64,000 nt of DNA. Origin: an uncultured Clostridia bacterium (GTDB taxonomy: Bacteria > Bacillota > Clostridia > TANB77 > CAG-508). The DNA is taken from positions 249,916 through 313,915 of the forward strand of contig CALXVG010000001.1 of the NCBI GenBank assembly GCA_944391955.1, read 5' to 3'. A program made the position numbers and the translations under genes. Shown here piece after piece: positions 21,147-38,166 of the stretch. Position 1 is the stretch's first letter, and every line of letters begins with the position of its first letter. The notes beneath the pieces were generated by a model. The model was given only the letters and a program-made list of their open reading frames with translations, searched no databases and was not told where the DNA came from.

Positions 21147-21362
21147 TCATTTGAACATGAGCCAAATCCAAAAAATGGAGGCTAGAATTGCTAAAATGTT
21201 CCAGTAGACACCTACAGCAAGGTCCTCCTTGTGGTTAACAATCCGGTCAATTAGACTTATTAGACTGCCTATCAAAAAGAGTATGCCAACTACCCCACCA
21301 ATCCAAGCGGGAATGTGGAACAAAATCCACATAATGATGCAGAATCCAATGAACTTCAACAT
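21147..21362 (-). CDS. Small (71-aa) two-TM membrane peptide in a GC-elevated (~41%) cassette
   Basis: MLKFIGFCIIMWILFHIPAWIGGVVGILFLIGSLISL ... VYWNILAILASIFWIWLMFK. Own consensus promoter and terminator. RBS AAAGGTGG. Confidence 0.5.
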   Translation of the reverse strand: MLKFIGFCIIMWILFHIPAWIGGVVGILFLIGSLISLIDRIVNHKEDLAVGVYWNILAILASIFWIWLMFK

Positions 21363-21398
21363 ATCTTTTTACCACCTTTACAAAAGTTTTATACTTTA

Positions 21399-21427
21399 AT
21401 TATACCATTTTTATTGATATTATTCAA
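21399..21427 (-). promoter_or_regulatory. Consensus sigma-A promoter with extended -10 for the 71-aa gene
   Basis: Minus strand reads TTGAAT-17-TGGTATAAT. Confidence 0.6.
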
Positions 21428-21428
21428 T

Positions 21429-22802
21429 TTAATGGCTTCTTCTTGGTCCTATATCATCATCCCATGGAACTTTTGCACTATTACCTTCATTTTCCTCATT
21501 TGCATCATTAGTGCCCATTTTTTTGTCTAATTCTTCTTCTATTTCTTGATTAACTTTTTCTTTTGCTTCTTCTCTTCCCATTTTTTCTGGGCCTATCATG
21601 TAATTCACTACTCTTGCCGCTTCATTTTTATTATATCCTTCATCCATTAATTGTTCGAATACTTTTTTTGGACTAAGTTCATCCATTGTAATACCTTCTT
21701 CTTTAAAGCCTGTATCCTCTATTTTATCATAACTTTTGCTAATTGTTTCTGAGTTGTCTTGTTTGTTTGTTGTATCACTTTTAGCATTTACTTGTTTACT
21801 ATTATAGTCTGTTCTTGTCCTTTCAACTTCATATCCTACCCATTGTCCGTCATCTCCAAGTCTAGTTTCTTCCATTCGGATTTCGCCGCCTTCTATGTAC
21901 ATAGCCATTCTAATATCTCTTATTCCATGTTGATATCTACTTAATTCTTGTGTTTGCATAACTTGATATGGTTGTTGTTTTTTTACATCTTGTCCGTCTT
22001 TTCCAACACTTATCACTGGTTCTGTTAAATGAGTGGTAGAATCTTTAAAAAATGGCGATGGTTGTATTATTCCTTGTTTATCAACATATTCTGCCTTCAT
22101 TTTACCATCATTATCTCTATAAAAATATGTTGATTTATCAACCATTGGATAATTTTTGAAAAATTGACTATCTGGTCTTATTCTATATACATTTTTTTCT
22201 GGAATGCCTTTTCTTTGTGCTATTTTTTTTGTTTCTTCATCATCATTTTTTTCTTCTTCGTCTTTTTCATCTTCGCCTTCTTTATTTTGTGCTTTTTCGT
22301 CTTTTTCATCTTGTGTTCTTTCCTTATCTCGTTCTTCCTTTTGTTTTTCCAAATCTTCTTTTGTTTTGCCTTCCATTTCTTTTAAAACTGATAAATCAGG
22401 TTTTTCTTGTTCTCCTAACTCTAAAAGTCCTAATTGATTATCAGGGTCTATCTTTTGAACTGTTTCTTTATTTACTTTTAAAGTTCCTTTTTCATCAATG
22501 TTCGCAATTAATACATCTTGACCCTGAAATTTCATATATACTTCGTATGTTGTTTTACTTTGCTCTTCTTCTTTATCATCTAAAAATTTCTCAGTTATTT
22601 CTGCGATTGAAACTTTTAAAATATTATTTCCTAATTTCAAATTGGCATCTTCATAATATTTAACATTTACATCATTATTTCCTGTTTCTTCTGCTCTTCT
22701 TTCTTCTATTCCCTTTATTTTTTCTAGAAGTTCTTCATCTCTTGTCATTTTTTCCTTTTTCATATCTGCTGCTAAATCTTGTCCTGAATTTTCTTCACCC
22801 AT
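21429..22802 (-). CDS. Hypothetical highly acidic/charged soluble protein (457 aa), first gene of the T4SS-like island
   Basis: Long ORF with Glu/Asp/Lys-rich tracts (EKDEEEKNDDEETKK); no TM, no NTP-binding motif. Confidence 0.6.
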   Translation of the reverse strand: MGEENSGQDLAADMKKEKMTRDEELLEKIKGIEERRAEETGNNDVNVKYYEDANLKLGNNILKVSIAEITEKFLDDKEEEQSKTTYEVYMKFQGQDVLIANIDEKGTLKVNKETVQKIDPDNQLGLLELGEQEKPDLSVLKEMEGKTKEDLEKQKEERDKERTQDEKDEKAQNKEGEDEKDEEEKNDDEETKKIAQRKGIPEKNVYRIRPDSQFFKNYPMVDKSTYFYRDNDGKMKAEYVDKQGIIQPSPFFKDSTTHLTEPVISVGKDGQDVKKQQPYQVMQTQELSRYQHGIRDIRMAMYIEGGEIRMEETRLGDDGQWVGYEVERTRTDYNSKQVNAKSDTTNKQDNSETISKSYDKIEDTGFKEEGITMDELSPKKVFEQLMDEGYNKNEAARVVNYMIGPEKMGREEAKEKVNQEIEEELDKKMGTNDANEENEGNSAKVPWDDDIGPRRSH

Positions 22803-22813
22803 ATTATTACCTC

Positions 22814-24229
22814 CTATTCACCTTCTTTTTGTATTTCTATGCTAATAATCTTATACTCCTGTCCTTCACCTAATTCAAGCTCTATTTTTACTGTTATTTC
22901 ATCAGAATTAATCACATTACCATCTGTTATTGTTAAAGAATATGATGTTTTTTCATCGTTTGATGAATAAGTACCAAACTCTAATTTATTATTTCCAAAC
23001 AGGTTATTTTCTAGATAATCTACCATATTTTGATAATCTGTAAAAGTATCATTATTTGCTAATTTATTATATACATATGTGTAGTCTCTATTGTTTATTG
23101 CTTCAAACATTCTCTCTATATTAAGTTGTGTCTTTGTTGATGCTGATGCATCATTATATTTACTTGTAAAATAGTTTAAATCTACTGTATATGTATCTAA
23201 GTATAATTTGTAATTCATAACACCATCTATTTCAAATATATAGTAATTTCCATATGGGTCTAAGCATATACAGTATTGTTGACCATTTTCTATATACATC
23301 TGATACTTCTCTAAAGATTTTTGAGGAGTTCTTGATAAATATTCATTATATTCATCATCACTTGCAAATTCTTCTCTATCTCTGATACTACTTGGGTCTA
23401 AACTTGCTAATTGAGATGCTTTACTTTCTTCATTCAAATATGCTAAAAATGCATTATAACTTCCAAATCTATTCTCCCTATACTCTTCATCTAATGAATT
23501 ATATGCTTCTTCTGAGTTATATCTAGCATTTTGGATATAATCTCTTAAATACTTATTAGCCATTTCTTCTTCTGTTAATGTTGTACTTGAAATTTTATTG
23601 TATGTGTCTAATTCTATTTCTTGATTATATGTTTCTGTTATTTGTTCTGTTGTATAATTATTATATTCGGCTAAGGTTATAGGCTTAATTGCATATGACA
23701 TATTTACTGAATCATAATACATAACTAAATAATATGGTGTTTTCTGAAAATCTTTTGTTAATGTACCATAAATATAATATATGGTTTTATCTGATTTATA
23801 ACTATACATTTCTTTTGCTTTGTATGTTCCGTCATATGGTATGTTTGCTCGCATAGTTTCTAATACGTTTGCACTATTTATAGAGTTTTGTGATATAAAG
23901 TTATCATCTAACAATTGCAAGACTGCATCTGCATTTCCAACTCTCAAATATAAAAAATATTTACTTATCATTGTTTCTGTTGAAAAGAATATATTTCTAT
24001 TTGTTACTTTTTTTAGTTTTTCTTCTGTATTATTTTCTACTTCTACTGGAAAGGTTTGATTATAGCTTGTGATATTGTTATTTATCACATTATTTAATAT
24101 GTTATTTGTAGCAATATTATTATTTGTCTGTTCTTCATCCGTTTTAAAAGTAGTAATTACTAACATTGAAATAACTATTATCATGATAGCAACAATTAAA
24201 ATAATAACTATTTTTTTTATATTATTCAT
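22814..24229 (-). CDS. Membrane-anchored hypothetical protein (471 aa), T4SS-island component
   Basis: N-terminal TM IVIILIVAIMIIVISMLVITTF then Asn/Tyr-rich extracytoplasmic domain. Confidence 0.6.
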   Translation of the reverse strand: MNNIKKIVIILIVAIMIIVISMLVITTFKTDEEQTNNNIATNNILNNVINNNITSYNQTFPVEVENNTEEKLKKVTNRNIFFSTETMISKYFLYLRVGNADAVLQLLDDNFISQNSINSANVLETMRANIPYDGTYKAKEMYSYKSDKTIYYIYGTLTKDFQKTPYYLVMYYDSVNMSYAIKPITLAEYNNYTTEQITETYNQEIELDTYNKISSTTLTEEEMANKYLRDYIQNARYNSEEAYNSLDEEYRENRFGSYNAFLAYLNEESKASQLASLDPSSIRDREEFASDDEYNEYLSRTPQKSLEKYQMYIENGQQYCICLDPYGNYYIFEIDGVMNYKLYLDTYTVDLNYFTSKYNDASASTKTQLNIERMFEAINNRDYTYVYNKLANNDTFTDYQNMVDYLENNLFGNNKLEFGTYSSNDEKTSYSLTITDGNVINSDEITVKIELELGEGQEYKIISIEIQKEGE

Positions 24230-24241
24230 TTATATCTCCTT

Positions 24242-37391: not shown

Positions 37392-37405
37392 TTTATCACC
37401 TGTTT

Positions 37406-37750
37406 TTATAAATTTAATTGTTCTATTAATCCTACTAATAATGATACTCCCATTAACATAAAGCAACCTACAACAAATGGTATCATTTCTTTTTTATAAT
37501 CTGCTTTTTCTTGTACACTCAAAAACATATATTTTAGTCCGATTATTGCTAAGACTACTATAGATATCATTATTCCTACGGTTCTTATGGCGCCTAAAAC
37601 TGGTCCTGCTTTTTGAACAAATGATTCTGAACCAGCTAATGATGGTTCGGGATTATAATTTTCTGGATTTTCTAATGCAAATACATTATTTGAAAATAAT
37701 ATAAGCATAATGCTAATTAATGGGACTATTATTTTTAATGTTCTTTTCAT
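37406..37750 (-). CDS. VirB2/TrbC-like pilin-type protein, paralog 3 (114 aa)
   Basis: Signal peptide ...NNVFA. Motif KYMFLSVQEKADYKKEMIP between two hydrophobic helices. Confidence 0.65.
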   Translation of the reverse strand: MKRTLKIIVPLISIMLILFSNNVFALENPENYNPEPSLAGSESFVQKAGPVLGAIRTVGIMISIVVLAIIGLKYMFLSVQEKADYKKEMIPFVVGCFMLMGVSLLVGLIEQLNL

Positions 37751-37977
37751 TAATTTAGCACCTCCTTATGCCTACTATCACTAATATTATAGCATTTTTT
37801 GATATTTATTGCAACTTTTTATGTTTATTTTTCTTTATATTTCTACATTTTTAATATAATTTTAATGTTTTTTTCAAAATTTGTCAATATCTTCTTGTAA
37901 AATTATTTTTAAATCCCAATTGGGGACGTATTTAAATTGAGAAAAATTTTCCAATTTGGGACAGGTTTGATTTAGCG

Positions 37978-38020
37978 GAGGTTGAAAGTTGGATGTTGGA
38001 TGTTGGAGGTTGGAAGTCTG
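37978..38020. repeat. Short tandem repeat (G/A)GTTGGA x5
   Basis: GGAGGTTGAAAGTTGGATGTTGGATGTTGGAGGTTGGAAG read directly; adjacent palindromes TCCCAATTGGGGA and CCAATTTGGGAC at 37915-37965. Confidence 0.5.
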
Positions 38021-38039
38021 TTTTCTGATTTCGGGGCAA

Positions 38040-38090
38040 TAAAAAACCTTGTAAGTACTTTAAAATCAATACTTACAAGGTTTTTACGGT
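38040..38090 (-). terminator. Intrinsic terminator downstream of tRNA-Gly(TCC)
   Basis: CCTTGTAAGTAtt...aaTACTTACAAGG stem, followed on minus strand by TTTTTTATT. Confidence 0.75.
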
Positions 38091-38092
38091 TT

Positions 38093-38166
38093 GGAGCAGG
38101 TAGTGGGAATCGAACCCACGTCATCAGCTTGGAAGGCTGAGGTTCTACCATTGAACTACACCTGCA
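38093..38166 (-). tRNA. tRNA-Gly (anticodon TCC)
   Basis: Cloverleaf folded by eye: acceptor GCAGGTG/CACCTGC, anticodon loop CTTCCAA, T-loop GGTTCGATTCC, encoded CCA. Confidence 0.85.

Follow-up and report, generated by a model that had tools for sequence, protein, structure and literature searches.

Genes resembling the mating-pore core of conjugative elements are present in a 64,000-nucleotide stretch of DNA from an uncultured Clostridia bacterium (contig CALXVG010000001.1, positions 249,916 to 313,915; the whole stretch is hereafter called the window), and the question that this locus raises is whether these genes belong to a mobile element or to an apparatus that the host keeps for its own use. 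The genes form a type IV secretion system (T4SS) cluster that occupies positions 21147-37750 of the window on the minus strand. A first, sequence-only reading of the DNA had described the cluster as an island next to a tRNA-Gly gene, and had proposed either an orphaned or domesticated secretion apparatus or an ordinary integrative and conjugative element (ICE) with its DNA-processing genes located beyond the window. Here we argue that the cluster likely encodes a host-fixed (that is, domesticated) T4SS/pilus apparatus of the mating-pair formation (MPF) FATA kind, which builds a VirB2-type pilus, and that it is not an ICE.

For this genome, 64 kb were examined. One genome per species of GTDB was scanned for relatives of the VirB4 protein, and the best 80 of the 434 loci with a VirB4 match were inspected over 10 kb either side of virB4. 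Proteins of the window were scanned with Pfam profiles (n = 54), the 10 largest cluster proteins also with NCBIfam, and approximately 10 further open reading frames (ORFs) of the window, outside the profile scans, were judged to be housekeeping genes from their N-termini or their relatives.

A T4SS gene cluster among housekeeping genes

The locus comprises 14 ORFs, all of them co-directional on the minus strand, between a gene for a secreted SH3-CAP protein (20278-21024) and a tRNA-Gly(tcc) gene (Table 1). DNA of the window is low in GC (~29-30%), with the majority of genes on the minus strand, and the GC content of the cluster (0.294) matches that of its flanks (0.301 and 0.295), in line with the match to the host stated from the sequence alone. 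For more than 20 kb on each side the flanks within the window consist of housekeeping genes (guaA, dxs, trmFO, tsaBE, lon, gpr, nth, sua5, rnc, ackA-pta, comEC and pyrG), the near flanks being sua5, ppdK and nth by Pfam. Because the flanks are housekeeping genes, we discarded the possibility that the window derives from a phage or a plasmid; nucleotide searches with the 17-kb region in collections of plasmids and phages returned a tRNA match or nothing, and an Rfam scan of the window returned tRNAs only. (A reading of the cluster as a SpoIIIA-like sporulation channel was dropped because no cluster protein matches those families in Pfam or NCBIfam.)

The ATPase of the cluster belongs to the VirB4 family on several agreeing lines of evidence. 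In addition to its Pfam matches (Table 1), the 651-aa protein carries a Walker A motif, AKSGAGKS, at residues 266-273 (33856-33879) and a Walker B motif, VLVDE, at residues 523-527 (33094-33108), matches the CD1110-family VirB4 (E=1e-57) and the Mycoplasma-ICE VirB4 (4e-52) of NCBIfam, and matches a solved VirB4 structure (PDB 4ag5) with E=8e-27. Note that it aligns solely to positions 182-729 of the 752-position CD1110 VirB4 model. Because of this, and because the protein encoded adjacent to it is TraC-like, VirB4 is probably split in this system, such that the TraC-like protein stands in for the missing VirB4 N-terminal domain (compare TrsD, below). The same split is found in the plasmid relatives described below. 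Moreover, the TraC-like gene is intact in every locus covering it: 17 loci re-examined by tblastn each gave a single unbroken match of 348-414 residues, and two other loci begin inside or after the gene. As for the VirB3/PrgI-like protein, the copy in the window is a weak match when taken alone (Table 1), but the Pfam family PrgI matches 38 of its 40 orthologues, the best with E=7.5e-9.

The sequence-only reading had named fourteen co-directional minus-strand genes, among them those for a VirB4-like ATPase with Walker A and B motifs and a small VirB3-like protein, and all 14 ORFs as well as both of these identifications were borne out. As a list of parts of the system, however, the fourteen hold for the core members and fail for two ORFs, of 71 and 102 aa, which are not conserved parts across 82 loci. 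Membership of the hydrophobic 71-aa ORF is doubtful because the ORF is not conserved (Table 1); relatives of the 102-aa ORF were found in four of the 82 loci, solely in those that also have two VirB6 paralogues.

DNA-processing genes and attachment sites

No relaxase, coupling protein or recombinase family was found among the 54 window proteins scanned with Pfam, and no relaxase family of NCBIfam was found among the 10 largest cluster proteins, in agreement with the earlier statement that the 17 kb holds no relaxase, coupling protein or integrase. Similarly, a scan of the ORFs in the loci for Walker A motifs revealed no second conserved P-loop family inside the cluster. The type IV coupling protein (T4CP) and three integrases of the nearest plasmid gave zero tblastn matches in 82 loci and the window, and no T4CP of the VirD4 or TcpA type was found in the window or within 10 kb of virB4 in the 80 species. 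The flanks of the relatives consist of housekeeping genes, named from sequence, with no relaxase among them. These results speak against the earlier alternative in which the DNA-processing module would be found a short way beyond the window.

Features that mark the ends of an integrated element were also sought. When the 3' end of the tRNA-Gly was searched for elsewhere in the window, allowing up to three mismatches, the sole match was an unrelated tRNA-Gly(gcc) (50699-50724), which upholds the claim that there is no att repeat of the tRNA-Gly 3' end, and no direct repeats flanking the cluster were found.

Conservation and inheritance of the cluster

A VirB4 sharing exact 8-residue words with that of the window is encoded by 434 species genomes. 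The best 80 of these relatives are 77-95% identical to it and all come from metagenome-assembled genomes (MAGs) of uncultured gut Clostridia, a set that includes Clostridium sp. CAG:452, UMGS and 'Lapin' MAGs and one complete chromosome of 1.70 Mb (OZ006978.1); contigs bearing the cluster are up to 1.3-1.7 Mb long. We take the clade of these relatives to be, probably, the GTDB order TANB77. In a library clustered at 50% identity, the sole full-length VirB4 match above 42% identity is one at 63%, and the next full-length match is at 40%.

Gene order is kept among the relatives, as follows: pilins (mostly 2-4), VirB3, TraC-like protein, VirB4, VirB6 (1-3 copies), in most relatives a protein of cluster c8 (see below), hydrolase, the family of the 471-aa protein and the family of the 457-aa protein. 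The surroundings of the operon, by contrast, vary. In the nearest group a sua5 or ppdK homologue lies upstream, and genes for an SH3-CAP protein and a Na/Ca exchanger together with nth lie downstream; in the largest group the flanks are a pair of M16 peptidase genes, nrdDG, yqeY and prs; and in a group of seven species (loci L030, L045, L051, L065, L067, L069 and L076) mnmG-rsmG-parA-parB lie upstream with the operon directly downstream. (Genes of the mnmG-rsmG-parA-parB set are usually found near the replication origin.) The tRNA gene is no more constant, since a tRNA-Gly precedes the pilins in the nearest 8 loci, the parAB group has two tRNA-Ser genes in that position, and none is present in most loci. 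The term island, used in the sequence-only reading, therefore does not fit a locus that is ancestral and lineage-wide, and whose adjacency to tRNA-Gly is restricted to the nearest subclade.

We compared the divergence of VirB4 with that of proteins encoded in its flanks. Across pairs of loci, VirB4 identity rises and falls with the identity of the M16 peptidase encoded in the flank (Spearman coefficient 0.80 over 758 pairs) and, likewise, with the identity of YqeY (0.67), and VirB4 is the more conserved, its mean identity being 87% as compared to 62% for the M16 peptidase and 74% for YqeY. Ratios of nonsynonymous to synonymous substitution rates (dN/dS), computed against the three closest species and rough because dS is near saturation (0.5-1.0), were 0.05-0.07 for VirB4, 0.08 for the product of ackA (included for comparison), 0.06-0.15 for the VirB3 and TraC-like proteins (VirB3 0.06-0.10; TraC-like ~0.15), ~0.22 for the 457-aa protein, and 0.28-0.72 for the pilins, VirB6-like proteins, hydrolase and VirB8-like proteins. 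The cluster is present in all 80 inspected species, and its divergence is correlated with that of its flanks, which is not the patchy presence of an ICE. Thus, the cluster is vertically inherited and chromosomal, with a strongly constrained engine and fast-evolving surface parts. A constrained cytoplasmic engine combined with diversifying exposed parts is expected of a functional organelle at the cell surface that is subject to pressure from phages, from immunity or from the need for partner specificity.

These findings bear directly on whether the cluster could be an ordinary or decaying ICE inserted at tRNA-Gly, with its relaxase, T4CP and integrase either encoded just beyond the window or lost not long ago. 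That the cluster adjoins a tRNA-Gly gene, that its components are homologous to conjugation genes of ICEs and plasmids, and that the nearest plasmid relative has a T4CP and integrases within ~12 kb are what such an element would lead one to expect. Yet housekeeping genes extend over more than 20 kb on either side in the window, the window contains no att repeat, and the operon is found in 80 species in at least four housekeeping contexts, only some of which include an adjacent tRNA; moreover, it co-diverges with its flanks, its VirB4 has a dN/dS of ~0.05, no component has been lost, and the plasmid T4CP and integrases have no match in any locus. We consider this explanation extremely improbable, and largely refuted. 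Because four features that define an ICE (an integrase, a relaxase, att repeats and a patchy or incongruent presence) were looked for and not found in the window and the inspected loci, we do not class the cluster as an ICE, and we favor the view that the apparatus is fixed in the host. Of the two alternatives offered earlier, the domesticated apparatus gains from the occurrence of the same operon in 80 species with varying housekeeping flanks, from co-divergence and from purifying selection like that on ackA, while the ordinary ICE with its DNA-processing module close by does not find support in the housekeeping flanks or in the 82 loci and the window, where the plasmid T4CP and integrases are without match.

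Several points weigh against the view that the apparatus is domesticated. The dN/dS values are rough, with dS near saturation (0.5-1.0), and the inspected loci are the best 80 of 434; the organisms are uncultured, and the system is known here from its genes alone; the VirB6 assignment (see below) is weak at the level of sequence. In addition, the searches span 64 kb here and 10 kb either side of virB4 in the relatives, such that a T4CP or a relaxase may be encoded elsewhere in the chromosome. This last point is central to the idea that the cluster encodes a DNA-transfer machine which works with a T4CP and a relaxase or other enzyme in trans, and which serves chromosomal exchange within the lineage, as in Mycoplasma chromosomal transfer or the archaeal Ced-type systems. 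The mating-pore set is complete, the nearest named families are conjugative (the VirB4 of the CD1110 ICE; the VirB4, VirB6 and pilin of the Mycoplasma ICE), long-term retention is compatible with a benefit from recombination, and T4CP genes are often remote from virB4 (PMC12102498). On the other hand, neither a T4CP nor a relaxase was seen in the window or in the related loci, which together amount to 1.5 Mb. Furthermore, we know of no documented bacterial conjugative system that has been kept for the benefit of its host over a comparable depth of divergence. We regard DNA transfer in trans as quite unlikely.

Table 1 Features of the T4SS gene cluster and its borders, in order of transcription
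Feature	Position in window	Strand	Evidence and remarks
tRNA-Gly(tcc)	38092..38165	-	Own terminator; neighbor, not attachment site; lies ahead of pilins in 8 nearest loci; the majority of other species lack it there
Two tandem sigma-70-type promoter-like elements	37786..37887	-	Promoter scan; upstream of pilin genes
VirB2-type pilin 1, 114 aa	37406..37750	-	T4SS_pilin 29.5 bits (cut-off 26.6), TrbC 24.7 bits
VirB2-type pilin 2, 146 aa	36951..37391	-	T4SS_pilin 34.9 bits, TrbC 29.0 bits
VirB2-type pilin 3, 118 aa	36484..36840	-	TrbC 44.4 bits, T4SS_pilin 41.7 bits; NCBIfam Mbov_0395 pilin-like E=1.6e-5
Terminator-like hairpin, 14 bp stem and T run	36438..36470	-	Terminator scan; directly 3' of pilin 3
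VirB3/PrgI-like small membrane protein, 97 aa	35818..36111	-	PrgI E=1e-3, 19.7 bits, below threshold
TraC-like protein, 395 aa	34628..35815	-	Precomputed Pfam PF26593 TraC-like; one N-terminal transmembrane (TM) helix
VirB4-family ATPase, 651 aa	32719..34674	-	Pfam P-loop_TraG 55.9 bits, AAA_10 and DUF87, all above threshold
VirB6-like protein a, 943 aa	29859..32690	-	TrbL_4 E=9e-4, below threshold; MMCAP2_0566 family E=5e-5
Small bitopic protein, 102 aa	29527..29835	-	No family match (Pfam)
VirB6-like protein b, 875 aa	26779..29406	-	TrbL_4 E=3.9e-5, below threshold; paralogue of a; Gly/Ser-rich linker
Membrane-anchored cell-wall hydrolase, C-terminal CHAP (VirB1 analogue)	25096..26673	-	CHAP 40.6 bits; TM helix aa 63-81
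Bitopic protein, 272 aa	24242..25060	-	One module homologous to first NTF2-like domain of 471-aa protein
VirB8-like protein, 471 aa	22814..24229	-	N-terminal TM helix and three tandem NTF2-like domains
Soluble acidic protein, 457 aa, unknown fold	21429..22802	-	Conserved, operon end; no TM helix or signal peptide
Hydrophobic ORF, 71 aa	21147..21362	-	One weak tblastn match (27.9% identity) in 82 loci

Pilins and their control region

Each of the three proteins encoded at the start of the cluster consists of a signal peptide followed by a two-helix hairpin, and each scores above the gathering score of the Pfam families T4SS_pilin and/or TrbC, so that their earlier designation as VirB2-like pilins stands. 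For pilin 2 the identity was right and the start was not: we place it at 37391 (giving 146 aa), as in public gene calls, rather than at 37466 as in the mechanical ORF.

Two promoter-like elements precede the pilin genes, the first reading TTGACA-17-TAAAAT (37887-37859) and the second TTGCAA-17-TGcTATAAT (37814-37786); downstream of them, ahead of the first pilin, is the ribosome-binding site AGGAGGTG. When the region was aligned with those of three relatives (L003, L004 and L008), both hexamer pairs and the ribosome-binding site were invariant, whereas the surrounding intergenic DNA was otherwise unalignable. We infer that these elements act as promoters. Note that the pilin genes may form a separate transcription unit, given the terminator-like hairpin after pilin 3.

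Three further observations concern the pilin region. A tandem repeat with a unit of 7 nt (GGAGGTT as read on the plus strand; ~5.4 copies, 37977-38017) separates the terminator of the tRNA-Gly gene from the promoters of the pilin genes; it is one unit shorter in a conspecific contig (L001) and is absent in other species. In some species the pilin slot is occupied by "big pilins" of 253-476 aa with a C-terminal pilin domain (pilin profile E 1e-30 to 1e-37; L051:6258-7019, L070:6617-7756, L015:1353-2783, L079:6708-7817 and L033:6220-7329), which may be subunits of the tip or adhesin type. The TraX family contains the N-acetylase of F pilin. A membrane protein of this family (Pfam E=3.6e-43) is encoded at 15514-16203 on the plus strand, ~5 kb from the end of the cluster.

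VirB6-like proteins and an embedded pilin-like hairpin

Two large proteins encoded after virB4, here called a and b, had been read as VirB6-type channel proteins. They share one architecture (36-38% identity), in which a signal or TM segment is followed by a variable outer domain, a pilin-like hairpin, a TrbL-like polytopic region, a low-complexity linker and a C-terminal domain, and they are predicted to have 5-7 TM segments. The polytopic topology, the position and a weak similarity to VirB6 families thus favor the earlier reading. The TrbL_4 scores stay below threshold, at 23.6 and 19.1 bits for the two proteins as compared to a cut-off of 27, and the family matches only 4 of 48 orthologues. 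It is reasonable, if weakly supported, to regard both proteins as VirB6-like.

The pilin-like hairpin emerged from profile searches. Pfam T4SS_pilin matches 21 of the 48 VirB6-like orthologues, and a hidden Markov model (HMM) built from 197 pilins of the clade matches 92 of 93 VirB6-like ORFs (E down to 3e-16), the match lying over the two-helix hairpin of the pilin. The hairpin is found just before the TrbL-like membrane domain, at approximately residues 340-410 of protein a and 295-365 of protein b, and contains the motif G-[IL]-[RK]...SS..QDKAKYK..L.DWL, whose counterpart in the pilins is G.KYM..S..EK..YKK.M.P. Among 1102 other ORFs the only strong matches to the same HMM were the five big pilins (253-476 aa), and the VirB6-like proteins of the plasmid relatives gave no match. 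A VirB2-like module therefore appears to have been fused ahead of the TrbL-like domain in the VirB6-like proteins of this clade, where it may serve as a built-in nucleus or dock for pilus assembly. If so, the hairpin may inform how VirB6 nucleates pilus assembly.

Hydrolase, VirB8-like proteins and the protein at the operon end

The next gene encodes the TM-anchored CHAP hydrolase of the sequence-only reading, which both its CHAP score of 40.6 bits and its one TM helix corroborate. In more distant members of the clade a Peptidase_M23 domain occupies the position of the hydrolase instead of CHAP.

By homology, two VirB8-like NTF2 proteins are encoded in the cluster. The 471-aa protein is a bitopic component with NTF2-like domains, as is VirB8 in other T4SSs, and residues 132-244 of the 272-aa protein resemble its residues 74-190 (blastp E=1e-5). 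In most relatives the stretch from the VirB6 gene to the hydrolase gene also codes for a 313-aa protein (cluster c8), in a slot similar to that of the 272-aa protein, and c8 shares an NTF2-like module with the 471-aa family (hhalign, 90% probability).

At the end of the operon lies the gene for the 457-aa protein, which is acidic (111 D+E as compared to 76 K+R) and has a conserved basic C-terminal tail (...PW..A..RR.R). This protein gave no match to Pfam or NCBIfam; its homologues number 42 among 5.8 billion proteins, zero of which have a recorded Pfam domain; and a structure model of it (pLDDT 78.7) returned no significant fold match. A protein so restricted to the lineage could be a substrate or an adaptor of the system.

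Proposed mechanism and function

From established knowledge of T4SSs we propose the following order of assembly. The VirB3-like protein and the TM-anchored TraC-like protein would dock the VirB4 ATPase at the membrane, VirB4 would drive extraction of the VirB2-type pilins from the membrane, and the pilins would polymerize on a VirB6-like platform that itself bears a pilin-like hairpin, with the VirB8-like NTF2 proteins and the CHAP hydrolase forming a conduit across the thick cell wall. Since the system is fixed in its host and passed on vertically, and since no DNA-processing module adjoins it, its most likely role, by analogy with other systems, is a contact-dependent one that serves the host, in adhesion and/or macromolecule exchange.

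We also weighed whether the machine could take up DNA, that is, whether a VirB4-driven pseudopilus could deliver DNA to ComEC in the manner of ComB or Ced/Ted. VirB2, B3, B4, B6 and B8 are present with no T4CP at the locus, and a full-length comEC lies 15 kb away (53057-55318, minus strand; domains Competence, DUF4131 and metallo-beta-lactamase); ComEC is also the partner of ComB, a system whose only ATPase is VirB4 (PMC12857230). However, comEC is near-universal in Firmicutes and is unlinked to the cluster in the relatives, and the weak matches to CedB and CedD cover a minority of each profile, that to CedD the Walker A region only. In addition, TANB77, the presumed order, has a conserved Tad pilus that could serve in uptake (PMC11680825), and the T4SS of Ca. 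Southlakia (see below) is essential independently of ComEC (PMC12857230). A role in competence is, in our estimation, very unlikely.

Alternatively, translocation may have been lost altogether, leaving only antigenically variable adhesive pili, similar to Bartonella Trw, for attachment to mucus, particles or microbes. This would sit well with the 2-4 pilin paralogues per genome, the big pilins of 250-476 aa in some species, the fast divergence of pilins and VirB6 outer domains, and the precedent of Trw, which is without a T4CP and has amplified pilin genes (PMC12857230). However, the operon ends with the conserved gene of a soluble 457-aa protein with a basic tail, for which a machine reduced to its pilus would have no obvious use, and the extreme conservation of VirB4 fits a pilus-only and a translocating machine alike. 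We give the loss of translocation little credence, and prefer the broader contact-dependent role stated above, which encompasses both adhesion and exchange.

Other features of the window

Two large genes for surface proteins with DUF11/CLIPPER repeats lie on the minus strand at 44857-46221 and 46605-50288. The surface protein of 1227 aa also has thioester (TED) and SpaA-like domains, a combination that suggests a covalent adhesin. In a distant member of the clade a 1442-aa CLIPPER protein (L085:16227-20555) is encoded ~5 kb downstream of the T4SS operon.

Two adjacent genes for HD-domain proteins, at 60423-61655 and 61790-63913 (minus strand), encode a 410-aa homologue of the YfbR-like 5'-deoxynucleotidases and a 707-aa HD protein, and coincide with a local GC peak of 0.39. 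Lastly, a 230-aa ORF on the plus strand (38270-38962) is antisense to a gene for a YkuD L,D-transpeptidase (38230-38913, minus strand) and is almost certainly spurious.

Comparison with known systems

Among annotated records the closest relatives of the cluster are on clostridial plasmids, namely the C. botulinum pINGR16-02E1 family (NZ_KT897276) and C. beijerinckii p1 (NZ_CP107023), with identities of 42% for VirB4, 28-31% for the TraC-like protein and 23-25% for the VirB6-like protein, and with a small pilin in addition. The order of genes is shared as well (pilin, small membrane protein, TraC-like protein, VirB4, large VirB6-like protein, large hydrolase). These systems differ from the cluster in being plasmid-borne, in having VirB6-like proteins without a match to the clade pilin HMM and in having no relatives of the 471-aa and 457-aa proteins at blastp E<=1e-3, and the C. 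beijerinckii plasmid, unlike the cluster, encodes a 1001-aa T4CP with a TraM-recognition domain and tyrosine recombinases, within ~12 kb. Judging from these similarities, the system probably descends from a T4SS of the clostridial plasmid type that became fixed in the chromosome of an ancestor of this low-GC lineage of gut Clostridia; the simplest history would be a single ancient capture of such a system followed by loss or relocation of its DNA-processing genes.

The best-scoring named families for VirB4, the VirB6-like proteins and the pilin are those of the CD1110/CTn2-type ICE of Clostridioides difficile and of the Mycoplasma ICE (NF045971, NF045975, NF045848 and NF045849), although the scores are far under the equivalog cut-offs (195.9 as compared to 325, and 176.9 as compared to 590). 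Each of these two systems is part of a mobile element that brings recombinases and T4CP-like ATPases of its own. The sequence-only reading had likened the cluster to Tn916 and pCW3, and while the functional analogy holds, Tn916 orf13-17, ICEBs1 Con and pCW3 Tcp did not feature among the closest relatives that the plasmid search returned. A 2025 review states that VirB2 and VirB5 are lacking in the T4SSs of Gram-positive bacteria, Patescibacteria excepted (PMC12857230); the cluster thus differs from systems of the Tn916/ICEBs1/pCW3 type in its three VirB2 pilins and, further, in encoding no T4CP of the TcpA/FtsK or VirD4 type.

Like the cluster, ComB of H. pylori, Trw of Bartonella, Ptl of B. 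pertussis and the archaeal Ced/Ted systems are chromosomal, driven by VirB4 and without a coupling protein or relaxase, and several repurposed T4SSs that lack a T4CP have multiplied pilin genes, as is the case here (PMC12857230). In contrast to the cluster, most of these systems come from diderms, and have an outer-membrane core made of VirB7/9/10, or from archaea, and NCBIfam revealed no specific sequence relationship of the cluster to them beyond the P-loop. Within TANB77 itself, the published conserved 'pilin' cluster specifies a Tad (type IVc) pilus and is located elsewhere (PMC11680825), and for this reason we rejected the idea that it is the same system. In the literature that was searched we found no paper linking TANB77 with a T4SS; the conserved Tad pilus is the only such apparatus described there.

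The most extensive likeness is to the T4SS of Patescibacteria. That system is chromosomal and derived from MPF-FATA, with TrsD beside VirB4 and with arrays of VirB2-like pilins (PMC12102498; PMC12857230); most of its virB4 clusters have no relaxase nearby, and t4cp is usually far from virB4 (PMC12102498). In Ca. Southlakia epibionticum ML1 the T4SS cluster is essential for epibiotic growth whereas a remote t4cp homologue is not (Wang et al. 2023, reviewed in PMC12857230). The Patescibacteria T4SS has been called unique among monoderms for its potential to form conjugative pili together with the need for it in growth (PMC12857230), and contact-dependent adhesion or exchange is the role that has been proposed for this relaxase-less, pilin-rich system.

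Common to that system and to the cluster are a monoderm host, a relation to MPF-FATA, a chromosomal and lineage-wide occurrence, a divergent array of VirB2-like pilins, no relaxase near virB4 (in Patescibacteria, in most clusters), and VirB3, VirB8 and a hydrolase. A VirB6 protein and a separate protein resembling the VirB4 N-terminus beside VirB4 are probably shared as well; where Patescibacteria have TrsD, the cluster has the adjacent 395-aa protein of the Pfam TraC-like family next to a VirB4 that is without the first ~180 profile positions. The hosts of both have reduced genomes and are uncultured or host-dependent, and in 7 species the operon described here lies beside the origin-proximal mnmG-rsmG-parAB genes, which recalls the position near dnaA reported for T4SSs of Patescibacteria. 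The host here differs, however, in being a Clostridia of the spore-former type (gpr is present in the window), with a complete chromosome of ~1.7 Mb in the clade rather than one of <1 Mb. To our knowledge, no pilin-like hairpin in VirB6, triple-NTF2 VirB8-like protein or acidic 457-aa protein is reported for the Patescibacteria system (PMC12102498; PMC12857230). The cluster is best regarded as an analogue, since host taxonomy makes its membership in the monophyletic VirB4 clade of Patescibacteria unlikely.

A bolder proposal is that the lineage has converged independently on the Patescibacteria solution, that is, on a T4SS which belongs to the core genome, is expressed constitutively and makes a VirB2-type pilus. 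Working alongside the Tad pilus of TANB77, such a system would be required for an obligate exchange, dependent on contact, with bacterial partners or with cells of the host, through uptake of metabolites or nucleic acids or through delivery of the 457-aa protein. Such a dependence would explain the resistance of the lineage to cultivation. We hold this to be fairly unlikely, but if the machine does mediate cell-cell dependence it would offer a concrete handle for cultivating the lineage, and it would bear on the reported links of the lineage to immunotherapy response, with the surface pilins as plausible immune ligands. At least 434 species-level genomes of abundant uncultured gut bacteria carry a relative of this VirB4. 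With the likely reading that the apparatus is fixed in its host, the cluster would be the second case, after Patescibacteria, of a lineage-wide, pilin-rich monoderm T4SS without an adjacent relaxase, and would extend this kind of system to the Clostridia.

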